Source: a virus. Taken from it: a DNA stretch of 64,000 nucleotides. The translations under genes and the position numbers were made by a program. The DNA lies in the UHGV virus genome UHGV-1370141. One strand, written 5' to 3'. This document shows positions 46,499 through 62,124 of the stretch, piece by piece. The notes under the pieces were generated by a model. That model saw only the letters and a list, made by a program, of their open reading frames with translations. It did no database searches and was not told where the DNA came from. Positions within the stretch are counted from its first letter, which is position 1; each line of letters opens with the position of its first letter.

Positions 46499-48456
46499 CT
46501 ACCCCGCCATTAAGATTAATTCTGAGTCGATGGCGATACCCGCCTCCAGATCTTCTTCGGTATCGCGTAAGAAACGGTTTTCCATGCTGATAAGCTCATT
46601 GTGTAACACCATGCTGCTAGACACTTCGTCTACGTTTGTGCTGGACATAAATCCGTTATCTGGGCGATAAGCCAGCGCCAAATCCATCTCCGTGGTATCG
46701 ACTAAAAGTCTAACCTGTAATTGGTCGCCGTCGAAATCCTGTTTGTCCACTCCATTCCTTTTGGAGCAGGTGTGCAATGACACCCTCCCATGTTTTCACA
46801 TGGGCACAGACTATATCATAACCGTAGGTATTGCTACCCGTAGGTCTCCCCCACTTCGCCGCTAAACTAAGCAGCTACTCTACTCGGTTTTACCCTTTCG
46901 ATAGTCGTTGAACGATTTTCATCGCTGCTGGTTATCCATTATCACAACCCTTAGCATTATTGGTTAGCATAGGCTATCTTACGAATTGTTTCTGACTTTC
47001 GCCACCCTGTCGGGATCGTAAGCTTTAGGAGTTTCCAGCAATTCGAGGGATACGCACTAGAGGTTTCCCGTCTAGTGGGCCAAATTTTAGCATTCGGAGC
47101 TTTGATGACGCGATCGGAGATACGTAACGAACACTGTGTAACATCAGGGTTAACAGCTGAGATAAATAATGTCTGAATAGACAACTGTACAAGCGTCGGG
47201 TTTCGTAGCGCTGATATCATCAGGCCGTAACCGCCACGAGACTCCTTAATAAGTTCGTTGATAATTTCATGAACCAACGGTACGTACTGCATTGATGCAA
47301 ATGCAATAACACGTTCACACTGCCGTGGTGTGAAGTTCCGTCGACCGAGTTTGTTTTCAATAGCTACAGATTCTAACGTCACTAGCCAACGCCAAGGTGC
47401 AATAACCTTCATAGCGTCATGCGGTTCTGAGATTGGAGAGATTGTTACACGACCACCCCACGGGATGTGTGTTGAACCTAACTTGGCACGATAGAATCCA
47501 GGTTTACCTTCCATCACCTCCTGACGATGGTCAATATAGAAGTACGCTAACTGGCGATTTGCTTTTAATGCGCGACTAATAATGAAATGGGTTGGGATGC
47601 GTCGTGCATTAGTATAAAGTAACGCGATGTTCTTAACCGCGTCTATTGCACCGGTATAAACAGGATCGATAAAGATACCCTGACGTCGTTCCTCCGTAAC
47701 GATCAGTTTGGGTGAAATGATTGGAAGATGAACCGGAAAGAAAGTGTGTGATTGTTCTTCGAAGAACTTTTTCCACTCTAAGCGAGTACGTTCGCTCTCA
47801 TATCGGTTATTTTTCGTTGGTGGATAAATTTCTTTCCAGACTTCAGGAGAAGTTAAGATATTGAATATTGTTCGATGGTGGTCAATAAAATTCCTAATGC
47901 CGCGTGGAACTTGATACTCGCTAAAGATACGTTTGATTATTCGGGATCGAGTACCTTCGTCTTTATCAGGTTTATAGCACGGATCTAACATCCACATCAA
48001 TAAATCAGAACCACGTTCTACGGTCACTTTGTTTCGGTTAAACTTCTTAAGTTTAGAACCGAAGAAAGCGTTAAACATCGACCAGAATCGTGGGTTAATA
48101 AAGTTGCCTATTTCCTCCGGGGCACGAATCCAGACTTCTGAAACAATACGATGTTCTGTCACTACATAGCCGCAGGTAGGACATCGCATACCGAGATTAT
48201 ATCGATGAACGATAGGTGCTTCACAATCAATACTACAAATGGGTGCCGAATTTAGCGTCTCGTCGACTGTCCGGTTCTGTAAGATTCGGTTAATCAACTC
48301 TGACGTCTCAATGGTGTCTTTATATTTCGCAACATCATTGATAATCATCGGCGGTTTATAGCCCTTTTCCTCCGCCTCTTTGAAAGCGTCACGTAACATT
48401 TTATCGTGACTGATTAATCGCCCTGATACACCGAAGTATTGTAATCTGTCTTTCAC
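46499..48456 (-). CDS. RNA polymerase beta'-like subunit, N-terminal module; intron-interrupted (exon 1 ~47150..48456, exon 2 46499..~46783)
   Basis: exon 1: Zn finger CSIDC...CPTCG, GKPGFYRAKLG...GGRVTISP, ISALRNPTLVQLSIQTLF; exon 2: HTCSKRNGVDKQDFDGDQ ... FMSSTNV. Confidence 0.65.
46784..47150 (-). other. group I self-splicing intron (no internal ORF)
   Basis: minus-strand GTTCAACGACTA (R-like) and GATATAGTCTG (S-like) P7 elements, P9-like hairpin before exon 2, frame change between exons, no RBS; boundaries approximate. Confidence 0.65.
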
Positions 48457-48544: not shown

Positions 48545-50383
48545 TCAGACAGGGCTGTAGTTACCGGAAGCGAATGACATGTTGTAGTCACTGCCGAAGG
48601 AGTTCGGGCCGTTACCAGACAGAGTGAAGTTTTCACCGCCGTTGTTGAAGAACAACGTATTAGCCAGGCTATTGACTGCGGTAACACCATTCACTTGGAA
48701 GATGCAGTTATCACGCACGTAGTCCAGCAGCGCTTTGGCGAATTTCGGGTTGATTGCCAAATCGGTGGACTCGCCAGTTACGACCGGCTGTTTGCTGCCG
48801 AACAGGGAAGCGGCCAGCTTCAGCAGGTACAAACGCTGTTCAGTCGCGTTGAACTGACGGTGTGAGTAAGATTGCGCGTACAGGTAAGTGTAGGCATCGT
48901 GTTGGTTATCACCAACTTTGCTCAGAACAGACACCAGGTCCTGATCCTGGAAGCTACGTTTCTGGCTGTTGCTGAAATACTGACCGGAAACAGTCGGTAC
49001 GCCAGCGATAACAACGTGGTTGCAGGTGATGGTATTAACTTTCAGCATTTCAGCGAAACGCTGCGTGAACACCGTAGCACCTTTCGGAGCCATGTTGTCC
49101 AGGATGGTCAGGATGTTAGACAGTGTACCAGTGTTACCCTGGGAAACTTCACTGAACATCGTGGAGAGACCACCGATACCGTTACCAGCACGATGGTTCA
49201 CAACCAGCGCAGCTTCTGGGTAGGCGAACATGTTCAGGCACTCTTCGATAGCTTCGCGGTTGCCATCGATTTTGCTCAGGTCCGGACGTTTGTCACCCCA
49301 CTCTACGTATTCCATAACGCGGGAGAAACGACGATCGGTTTTGTTGAGAGAGTGCATGAAGCGTTCACGCCAGCCACCGATAGCGGCGATTTCTGCAAAG
49401 GCGGCCAGTTCAATCAGCTGACGTTCGATTGGTACCATAGCCCCGGAAGACTGAGAGTCCATCAGAGAAACAACAACTTCTGCTTGCAGCTGTTTGTAAT
49501 CCTGTACGCCATTTTCAGGTGCACGGCGGCCAGTGTAACGCAGGTTGATGTAACCCACACCCGCAACGCTCGGATAACCCTGAACACGTTCAGAGGACAT
49601 CAGCGTCGGGTTAGTATCGAAGCTACCGGTCTGAGTGTGTTCAACCTGAACCATCAGGTCAGCACGTTGTGCAGAGCCGTTAACGTCAGTCAGAGAACCT
49701 TCGTCTACCGCAGTTACCTGTGCAACGAAGCGATCGCCACGAGTCAGTTTCAGCTGACCCAGGTAGCCCGGAATACGGCCAAAGATACCCAGAGTCAGCT
49801 GACCCATCAGCTGGATAGCCCACTCTTCGGTCAGCGTTTTACCCAGGTCTGGAATGCAGTTCATTACCATGAATTGCACAGACGACAGGTTCTGCTGTTC
49901 GCAGATTTGTTTGGTGATGGAATCCATTACGCCAGCCTGACCGAACAGAGATGCCAGGGTGTAATAAGTTTCTTTACCGTTGATTTCACGGAAGCGTACA
50001 GACTGACCGTGTTCGAAGAACAGGATACCGTACATCCAGTGGCTGCCGTTTTCATCTGCTGGCGCAGCAACGTATGCCGCAGAACCCATTTCTGGATTCA
50101 CACCATCGATAACACCGCAGCGGAATTTGCTCAGGTACGGGTTACGTTCAACCATCTTCGCAATCAGCGCGGTGAAATGTGAAGCGGCAGAAACGTAGGA
50201 CATATAGCCGAACGCTTTATCGAAAGTGGAGATATTCTTAGACATACCACCGAAAGCATTTGCTGCGTGGGTGTTATCCACACTGCCTGCACCAGCACCT
50301 ACACCACCAAAAGACGGAGCCGGGTCTACACCAGCAGCGCCAGCATTTACGTTGTTAGGAATTTCGTTAAACTCTTTAGCCAT
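48545..50383 (-). CDS. chmA: 612-aa protein with Gly/Ala/Ser-rich terminal extensions; chimallin-like nuclear-shell candidate (alternative: structural protein)
   Basis: flexible N- and C-terminal segments, strong RBS, own terminator, immediately upstream of the RNAP beta' gene; identity inferred from context only. Confidence 0.45.
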   Translation of the reverse strand: MAKEFNEIPNNVNAGAAGVDPAPSFGGVGAGAGSVDNTHAANAFGGMSKNISTFDKAFGYMSYVSAASHFTALIAKMVERNPYLSKFRCGVIDGVNPEMGSAAYVAAPADENGSHWMYGILFFEHGQSVRFREINGKETYYTLASLFGQAGVMDSITKQICEQQNLSSVQFMVMNCIPDLGKTLTEEWAIQLMGQLTLGIFGRIPGYLGQLKLTRGDRFVAQVTAVDEGSLTDVNGSAQRADLMVQVEHTQTGSFDTNPTLMSSERVQGYPSVAGVGYINLRYTGRRAPENGVQDYKQLQAEVVVSLMDSQSSGAMVPIERQLIELAAFAEIAAIGGWRERFMHSLNKTDRRFSRVMEYVEWGDKRPDLSKIDGNREAIEECLNMFAYPEAALVVNHRAGNGIGGLSTMFSEVSQGNTGTLSNILTILDNMAPKGATVFTQRFAEMLKVNTITCNHVVIAGVPTVSGQYFSNSQKRSFQDQDLVSVLSKVGDNQHDAYTYLYAQSYSHRQFNATEQRLYLLKLAASLFGSKQPVVTGESTDLAINPKFAKALLDYVRDNCIFQVNGVTAVNSLANTLFFNNGGENFTLSGNGPNSFGSDYNMSFASGNYSPV

Positions 50384-62041: not shown

Positions 62042-62114
62042 CGACCAATGGCAGGATTCGAACCTGCGAAATAACCGATTATTAGTCGGGTGTTAATTCC
62101 TCTAACTTCAATGG
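62042..62114 (-). tRNA. tRNA-like gene, possibly degenerate (anticodon loop reads as AAU)
   Basis: hand-folded cloverleaf: T-arm GCAGG-TTCGAAT-CCTGC, D-arm GTTA/TAAC with GG loop; but A at position 8, a U-U acceptor mismatch and a C-U anticodon-stem mismatch. Confidence 0.4.
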
Positions 62115-62124
62115 TCTAAATCCA

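Follow-up and report, generated by a model that had tools for sequence, protein, structure and literature searches.

An interrupted RNA polymerase gene

The window analyzed here is a 64,000-nucleotide (nt) stretch of the virus genome UHGV-1370141, and its minus strand carries an RNA polymerase (RNAP) beta' gene whose parts lie in two open reading frames (ORFs). The first ORF (48456..46957, minus strand, 499 aa) is beta'-like up to ...RVIKAPNA and then continues for 43 further read-through codons, which are without any homolog; the unspliced product ends ...KIAYANQ. The second ORF (46783..46499, minus strand) is in a separate phase and holds DFDGDQLQV. An initial annotation of this stretch, made from the letters alone, had placed a group I intron at 47150..46784 in the gene for a beta' N-terminal (beta'-N) subunit, just before the catalytic DFDGD motif. 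It had described a beta' homolog that turns non-homologous and a DFDGD motif in an ORF of another phase, and both were seen again. The stretch without homology, which it had counted as ~64 codons, is really the last 43 codons of the ORF. The first ORF had also been said never to reach NADFDGD; it does reach the NA, and the remainder, DFDGD, is indeed in the other ORF.

When ...KAPNA was conceptually spliced to DFDGDQL..., a 535-aa protein was obtained. This protein matched PDB entry 7OGP chain A with an E value of 1.8e-37 over query residues 68-506, and kapnadfdgdql is identical and ungapped across the junction in the alignment. Chain A is the fused product of PHIKZ055 and PHIKZ056.1, the beta'-N subunit of the phiKZ non-virion RNAP (nvRNAP), and the homology to this gp55 family takes in the Zn-finger region as well as NADFDGD. 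The spliced protein also matches the AR9 nvRNAP beta' subunit (E 7e-8), and PF00623 is present in some homologs of the beta'-N protein. Downstream, the gene is followed by a gp59-like gene, two small genes and SbcD, as in PhiPA3, EL and SPN3US-like phages (Seoulvirus). Because the spliced product aligns continuously with phiKZ gp55 across the KAPNA/DFDGDQL junction, the interrupted gene is, judged by homology, that of the nvRNAP beta'-N subunit of the phiKZ gp55 family, which bears out the earlier assignment and the outcome expected of an alignment to phiKZ-like nvRNAPs. A virion RNAP (vRNAP) subunit, SPN3US gp240, had first been suspected from Thomas 2016 and was ruled out by the PDB match to phiKZ gp55 together with the gene order.

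Three segments make up the gene, all on the minus strand. Exon 1 (48456..47089) has 456 codons, ends ...RVIKAPNA with U47089 as its last base, and is defined by homology to phiKZ gp55 and to intron-less phages. The intron (47088..46739) is 350 nt long and contains no endonuclease ORF. Exon 2 (46738..46499) comprises 79 codons and a stop, and starts GAT TTC GAC GGC GAC, which encodes DFDGD. The intron thus lies within the catalytic Mg-binding motif, between the codons for NA and those for DFDGD.

Intron structure and predicted splice junctions

A scan of the region with the Rfam group I covariance model, which had been suggested as a check, was positive. RF00028 matched 47099..46787 (minus strand) with 63.7 bits and E 8.2e-14, over positions 1-253 of the 253-position model and not truncated; the curated gathering score of this family is 50 bits. 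On the strength of its sequence the element is a group I intron, as the initial annotation had proposed. Nine introns that occupy the same site in other phages were aligned with MAFFT after removal of their endonuclease ORFs, and from this alignment RNAalifold recovered P2, P3, P4, P5 with long P5a and P5b arms, P7.2, P8, P9, P9.1 and P9.2. Compensatory changes were present in 40 of the 87 predicted pairs. In a cleaned set of 78 pairs, 95.1% of the cells are paired, compared to 37–45% when the 3' partners were slid by 1–3 columns, and 40 pairs show double changes, compared to 7–9 in the slid controls; none of 500 shuffles reached the observed values. Folded as a single sequence, the window intron has an energy of -111.4 kcal/mol (z = -3.2).

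At the 5' splice site, the P1 helix (47079..47091, minus strand, as are all helices below) consists of exon GCU and intron AA paired with the guide UUGGC and closed by a 3-nt loop. It appears in the single-sequence fold, and U47089.G47081 forms the wobble pair at the splice site. The exon and guide strands of P1 co-vary: GCU-AA faces UUGGC in the window, GGU-UC faces GAGCC in E. coli phage EC001, GGU-AA faces UUGCC in Salmonella phage SaP7, and GAU-AG faces CUGUC in Vibrio phage 2 TSL-2019. Exon base -2 and its guide partner are accordingly C-G, G-C and A-U in different phages.

The P2 hairpin (47055..47077) has a GAAA loop and compensatory changes in 5 of 9 pairs (helix 1), and P3 joins UCCCUC (47045..47050) to GGGGGAG (46846..46852), with 5 of 7 pairs compensatory and 98% paired (helix 2). 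The P4-P5 domain with its extended P5a and P5b arms (46925..47041; helices 3–9) includes P4, in which 47041..47035 pairs with 46931..46925, and a P5a stem with compensatory changes in 6 of 7 pairs. The P6 hairpin, CGAU-GAAA-AUCG (46913..46924), was drawn from the sequence and the single-sequence fold, and a longer P6 stands at the same place in the relatives. The R element GUUCAACGACUA (46902..46913), which comprises J6/7 and the 5' strand of P7, corresponds in the Rfam alignment to the consensus GUUCAaAGACUA; the S element GAUAUAGUCUG (46807..46817), the 3' strand of P7, was placed by the Rfam alignment and the sequence. Both elements had been picked out in the initial annotation and are present, as GTTCAACGACTA at 46913..46902 and GATATAGTCTG at 46817..46807. 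P7 forms a pseudoknot with P3 and, by eye, co-varies from GACUA/UAGUC in the window to GACCG/UGGUC in SaP7 and GGCCA/UGGUC in Pseudomonas phage EL.

Between P7 and the 3' strand of P3 lies the peripheral hairpin P7.2 (46858..46875; helix 10, compensatory in 5 of 6 pairs), and P8 (46820..46845) comprises helices 11–12. The hairpin CCCATG-TGAAAA-CATGGG (46787..46804; helix 13, compensatory in 6 of 7 pairs) had been reported to stand directly before exon 2. It is present at 46804..46787, but it is P9, and it lies 48 nt upstream of the exon. P9 is followed by P9.1 (46786..46768; helix 14, 98% paired) and P9.2 (46767..46749; helix 15, 100% paired, compensatory in 3 of 5 pairs). The assignment to subgroup IA2 depends on these peripheral helices, of which P7.2, P9.1 and P9.2 are backed by covariation and P7.1 is not reliably drawn. 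The T4 td, nrdB and nrdD introns belong to IA2, for which a peripheral layout of P7.2 and P9.1/P9.2 is typical, and the layout of the window intron is like that of this td-like type, to which it may belong.

The borders of the intron were located by several lines of evidence. All nine same-site introns end in G right before GAT TT, which places the terminal G (omega G) and the 3' splice site of the window intron at 46739. The intron-less Seoulvirus phage SEGD1 reads RVIKMANG-DFDGDQFQV without a gap at the junction, tblastn alignments to intron-less phages, SEGD1 and Erwinia phages among them, run across the junction without a break, and PhiPA3 gp054 and phiKZ gp55 read KAPNADFDGDQL over the region. 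An intron-less allele of the same gene (L072) is collinear with exon 1 up to U47089, and the five intron-less alleles L072–L076 are without exactly the same 350 nt. Compared to the intron-plus sequences L016 (IMG/VR) and L070 (ENA), exon 1 is 75.1% identical, the intron 98.0–98.3% (343–344 of 350 positions, no indels) and exon 2 72.9%, and this step in identity falls at both junctions. Because homology, group I rules, intron-less alleles and the identity step all agree, the borders were set at 47088..46739. The interval given originally had taken in 62 nt of exon 1 and missed the last 45 nt of the intron.

The predicted ligated-exon junction is ...CCGAATGCT joined to GATTTCGAC..., and the junction-spanning peptide would be VIKAPNADFDGDQLQVR, in the APNADFDGDQ region. 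Ligation would bring the exons back into frame, complete NADFDGD and yield a 535-aa protein that is collinear with phiKZ gp55 and with the natural intron-less alleles. A start of exon 2 at 46786, directly after P9 and at the end of the Rfam match, was rejected: it is in frame, but it adds 16 residues (RVSLHTCSKRNGVDKQ) that are absent from every homolog, and the stretch forms the co-varying helices P9.1 and P9.2. For the same stretch, the initial reading of ORF 46499..46783 as exon 2 from its start was corrected. The first 15 codons of this ORF (MSLHTCSKRNGVDKQ) are intron RNA, P9.1 and P9.2, and exon 2 begins with GAT at 46738.

A different account of the locus holds that the 350-nt element does not splice and that fragments of 499 aa and ~80–94 aa are translated separately and assemble into the polymerase. 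RNAP subunits of jumbo phages are naturally split elsewhere (PMC7598289), two coding sequences (CDSs) are annotated in GenBank records of related phages, and Shine-Dalgarno-like GGGAGG and AAGGA stretches stand before in-frame GTG codons at 46783 and 46750. The statement that there is no ribosome binding site in the interval must be qualified for this reason, as GGGAGG directly abuts the first of these GTG codons and AAGGA comes before the second, both motifs lying in intron helices that are conserved. A complete group I core with 40 compensatory pairs, some of them in helices over the supposed start of the second ORF, is however unexpected in a dead spacer. The break would also cut through the NADFDGD loop. 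All intron-less homologs have this loop in one piece, as does the solved phiKZ enzyme; the gene is uninterrupted in near-identical phages, and the 43 read-through codons have no homolog. We therefore regard a split gene as very unlikely.

Intron-plus and intron-less alleles

Megablast of the gene against the GenBank phage collection returned nothing, and a 24-kb part of the window aligned only in patches of ~72–74% identity, to SPN3US-like and Erwinia phages. The phage and a sister lineage occur as ~222–226 kb contigs in many assemblies that are labelled as Salmonella enterica (several serovars), Shigella flexneri, Shigella sonnei and E. coli, and also in metagenomes. The contigs in isolate assemblies could stem from phages kept in a carrier state, from a host range that is very broad or from recurrent contamination. 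Two lineages were distinguished, with exons ~75% identical: lineage A comprises the window, L068, L069 and L072, and lineage B comprises L016, L070 and L073–L076. Each lineage has both alleles. L072, from a Salmonella enterica assembly, is intron-less with ~98% nucleotide identity to the window, and L073–L076 carry an uninterrupted gene in lineage B. Both 90%-identity protein clusters, of 231 and 106 proteins, likewise hold 499-aa members, consistent with intron-plus genes, and 535-aa members, consistent with intron-less genes.

The intron-plus locus was independently assembled in L068 (Logan; 100% over 2,100 bases), L069 (an ENA metagenome; 98.8%), L016 (IMG/VR) and L070 (CYGL01000001.1). Against these four assemblies, a chimeric join, misassembly or annotation error in one sequence has nothing in its favor beyond the general possibility, and its probability is negligible. 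Across the two lineages the intron is 98.0–98.6% identical and of exactly the same length. A near-identical intron of the same length within exons that are ~75% identical indicates that the ORF-less form itself has moved.

Comparison with L072 shows traces of this movement. The two sequences differ at 31 of 1551 positions, and 8 of the 31 differences fall on the wobble positions of eight successive codons flanking the site (-15, -12, -9, -6, -3, +3, +6 and +9), all synonymous. There is no other difference from -273 to +32 (binomial P 6e-7). The upstream arm of the patch (47089..47104, minus strand) has wobble differences at 47104, 47101, 47098, 47095 and 47092, and the downstream arm (46730..46738, minus strand) has them at 46736, 46733 and 46730. 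The intron-plus flank reads ...GCTCCGAATGCT before the site and GATTTCGAC... after it, and the intron-less site reads ATTAAGGCACCTAACGCT and GACTTTGATGGCGAC. We interpret this cluster of synonymous differences, from -15 to +9, as a short co-conversion tract of ~25 nt, which implies a DNA-level transfer through gene conversion. Among Seoulvirus phages, GGA precedes the site in the intron-less SEGD1 and GGT in the intron-plus alleles, GGT giving the U of the U.G pair. The intron-less beta'-N gene of SEGD1 (L004:1300-2300) shifts reading frame about halfway and has no annotated CDS; the change of frame is probably a sequencing frameshift in the record.

The distribution of alleles could instead descend from a common ancestor that had the intron, with precise loss in the intron-less alleles, similarity of the introns kept up by RNA constraint, and no mobility at present. 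Constraint on group I cores and, in principle, precise loss of introns are both known, and both allele types are found in both lineages. Yet the same intron family diverges elsewhere about as fast as exons do (70–72% identity to the Seoulvirus copies), and in the present comparison the 98% identity extends to loops and peripheral helices, and there are no indels. The eight consecutive foreign-looking synonymous changes stand right at the site in a gene that is otherwise ~98% identical, which points to gain by gene conversion, and neither IMG/VR nor the GTDB genomes had a match to a 23-mer of the ligated-exon junction with intron-plus flanks. Vertical inheritance is accordingly judged improbable.

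Movement through RNA, in which the intron would reverse-splice into a new phage's mRNA and the product be reverse-transcribed and recombined, would predict the razor-sharp identity step that is seen at both junctions between lineages, and would need no endonuclease gene. This step had suggested an absence of co-conversion and hence reverse splicing, an idea that was withdrawn when the donor patch from -15 to +9 was recognized against the same-lineage, intron-less L072. Exon sequence of donor type at these positions would not be brought in by reverse splicing into the recipient's own RNA, and no reverse-transcriptase family was among the Pfam matches of 62 window ORFs. The chance that the intron came by this route is slimmer still than that of a split gene.

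Taken together, the locus very probably carries an ORF-less group I intron between the NA and DFDGD codons, which is spliced to give one 535-aa subunit and which arrived recently at the DNA level. By the mechanism of the family, the pre-mRNA would fold into the group I core, and an external guanosine would attack after U47089, which a U.G wobble with the guide UUGGC holds in P1. Once released, exon 1 would attack after the terminal G46739, and the exons would be ligated to give ...RVIKAPNA-DFDGDQLQV... and a single 535-aa translated subunit. The most likely route of spread is homing or break-stimulated gene conversion in a mixed infection, with the endonuclease presumably supplied in trans.

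Several points weigh against this interpretation. The joining of the two ORFs into one subunit, and the efficiency with which it would take place, are predicted from sequence. The covariation counts rest on only ~five independent lineages, and covariation in P1 and P7 was judged by eye, since the MAFFT alignment is out of register there. Only 3 exon pairs are formed in P1, P10 is weak with 3–5 possible pairs, and P7.1 is not drawable with confidence. The in-frame GTG at 46750..46748, preceded by AAGGA, means that a separate start of an exon 2 peptide is possible in principle. The donor of the flanking patch of lineage A (GCT CCG ... GAC) was not found in any collection searched. Lastly, the endonuclease that moved the ORF-less intron is taken to have acted in trans, by analogy with T4 MobE and nrdB.

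The intron itself has a 3-nt L1 loop and no listed ORF of a size to encode an endonuclease, as the initial annotation had noted. No homolog of the HNH endonucleases of four relatives described below was found among all stop-to-stop ORFs of the window, and none of its 62 ORFs of at least 80 aa matched an HNH, GIY-YIG, LAGLIDADG or NUMOD family in Pfam. Same-site introns that bear HNH genes do exist in other Salmonella jumbo phages.

Related introns and neighboring insertion sites

The same codon boundary is occupied by ~70–72% identical introns in Seoulvirus phages, Raoultella and Klebsiella phages and Pseudomonas phage EL, all at or above the Rfam gathering score. The carriers are E. coli phage EC001, Salmonella phages SPLA3, SaP7, JN03 and 1252, Proteus phage 7, Raoultella phage VB_ZK_P1, Klebsiella phage phiKp_32 and EL. 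Like the window intron, these are inserted between N-A/G and D-F-D-G-D and have the same architecture, including P9.1 and P9.2. They share its end ...GGACAAnCAG, except for EL, which ends ...GGACAAGUG. They differ from it in a guide that changes where the exon changes, in a longer P6 and in P7.1. The introns of EC001, SPLA3 and the Raoultella phage are ORF-less like that of the window, whereas loop L1 holds an HNH/NUMOD gene of ~290–340 aa in SaP7, Proteus phage 7, phiKp_32 and EL; the SaP7 gene encodes 288 aa. These L1 ORFs separate the 5' strand of P1 from the guide. They match Pfam NUMOD1, the I-HmuI NUMOD-like domain, or both, and all four match HNH_3, just under its curated score. The GenBank records of the same-site carriers list two CDSs with no intron annotated. 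In SaP7 (L001:244-2498), Proteus phage 7 (L008:112-2498) and EL (gp025; L012:1437-2417), the L1 HNH/NUMOD genes go under 'hypothetical protein' or 'putative replication protein'. There the RNAP exons are entered as separate genes, and the records call for intron annotation.

Four distinct insertion points, in different phages, fall within 15 nt of catalytic-loop codons. The first, between NA and DFDGD, is that of the window intron and its same-site relatives. The second, between NAD and FDGD, is used by Vibrio phage 2 TSL-2019, whose homologous intron (L011:2455-2850) lies 3 nt downstream, is 72.6% identical over the 5' 160 nt and scores 66.5 bits with Rfam. Its guide has GUC instead of GGC and matches its exon end GAU, so that a one-base retargeting of the guide accompanies the 3-nt shift of site. 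Photobacterium phage PDCC-1 matched the same stretch of the window intron as TSL-2019 did.

The third point, between NADFDG and D, was found in the Raoultella and Klebsiella phages. VB_ZK_P1 (L003:2872-3200) and phiKp_32 (L009) have the same-site intron, then a 12-nt mini-exon GATTTTGACGGT (DFDG), and then an insertion of ~312 nt before GAT ACC ATG TAC. This second insertion has a P1-like CGGU-...GCCG pairing with a U.G and ends in G, and in the Raoultella phage it gave no Rfam match at E<=1. A divergent group I intron is possible, which would make a tandem pair around a 4-codon exon.

The fourth point, after NADFDGD, is of the phiKZ type, with gp56. Introns in phiKZ gp55 were reported earlier (PMC11512511), and the gp55/gp56/gp56.1 intron is like that of the window in the gene family interrupted, in a group I score that exceeds the Rfam threshold (phiKZ-like phage W10-2 scores 74.8 bits) and in targeting the catalytic motif. 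It differs in its position 15 nt further downstream (NADFDGD/QL), in its P1 (GGAGAU/GUCUCC) and in encoding a 366-aa HNH and NUMOD endonuclease, gp56, with a clear HNH_3 match, whereas the window intron is ORF-less.

The P5b motif GCTAAMCAATAMYGCTAA was found in 43 viral contigs of IMG/VR, including two places each in the EL and PDCC-1 genomes, and its spread suggests a wide family of related introns in jumbo phages. The pattern TGGACAANCAGGATTTYGA was discarded as an intron marker in IMG/VR, since 12 of 13 loci were chance matches without an intron.

Co-infecting phages that form a nucleus have recently been shown to use introns in their RNAP genes as weapons against one another (PMC11620839), and the initial annotation had referred to such introns as a known battleground. 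This fits that report and PMC11512511, as well as the four insertion sites within 15 nt of the motif. One case is PhiPA3 gp210, whose intron endonuclease mediates competition between co-infecting phages (Birkholz et al. 2024, PMC11620839; review PMC12908238). As in the window, a group I intron stands at catalytic-site codons of an RNAP subunit gene in a nucleus-forming jumbo phage; unlike in the window, the gene is that of the vRNAP beta subunit, the site follows two conserved Asp codons, and the intron encodes a demonstrated nicking HNH endonuclease (PMC11620839). No ORF-less, trans-mobilized form is described for gp210 in PMC11620839. A precedent for spread without a working endonuclease of its own is the T4 nrdB intron, which has a defunct I-TevIII and is mobilized in trans by the free-standing HNH endonuclease MobE (PMC2790892). 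The T4 system differs from the present one in its host genes and in that the window has no adjacent free-standing endonuclease.

No sequence similarity was detectable between the window intron and the T4 introns. The sole T-even match of the window intron is a 41-nt stretch, 95% identical, in the P7/P7.1 region (46913..46875), shared with Escherichia phage JSE. In JSE (L071:1707-2235), the DNA polymerase gene is annotated as two CDSs, and the stretch lies in the ~527-nt intron-like spacer between them. It also occurs in several related T-even-type phages, in some of them beside HNH or NUMOD genes. The shared stretch suggests an exchange of modules between introns of enterobacterial phages.

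An explanation for the persistence of the ORF-less intron can be offered tentatively, and is less likely to be right than wrong. Occupation of the NA/DFDGD site would remove the target of the same-site HNH endonucleases of competing Salmonella jumbo phages, of the SaP7 type, and the intron might be kept, and perhaps spread, by protecting its phage. It would amount to a cost-free 'vaccination' that those endonucleases help to disseminate in trans when phages infect together, and the four sites in 15 nt and the GGC to GUC change of guide would be traces of an arms race. If this is true, an ORF-less intron protects the polymerase gene from competitors' endonucleases. Both trans-homing and a possible protective role of ORF-less introns are directly testable with existing phages.

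In annotation, the two ORFs of the window should be joined as one 535-aa catalytic subunit, and the same correction applies to GenBank records of jumbo phages that list two 'RNA polymerase beta' fragments or hypothetical proteins. The element type is already known, and what is added here is mainly population-level evidence of an ORF-less intron moving between diverged phages. The coexistence of intron-plus and intron-less alleles in two lineages, with a near-identical ORF-less intron in exons that are 25% divergent and a tract of ~25 nt, is a natural experiment.

Elsewhere in the 64-kb window, no second Rfam-detectable intron was found, the other RNAP beta-type genes included, as RF00028 matched at beta'-N only. 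Upstream of the interrupted gene, a 612-aa ORF (48545-50383, minus strand) occupies the position of the nuclear-shell protein (chimallin) in PhiPA3 and a Vibrio phage. It had no Pfam match and no similarity to PhiPA3 gp053 or the Vibrio phage shell protein by BLASTP, or to any PDB chain by phmmer. Its identification as chimallin was not adopted, the assignment being positional with no detectable sequence similarity. Other genes in the window include RNAP beta-type genes (two ORFs match phrog_3015, others phrog_3295 and phrog_2962), a divergent family B DNA polymerase, dihydrofolate reductase and phiKZ-type head proteins. A tRNA gene at 62043-62115 (minus strand) was matched by Rfam with 40.1 bits and has some non-canonical pairs in its acceptor stem.

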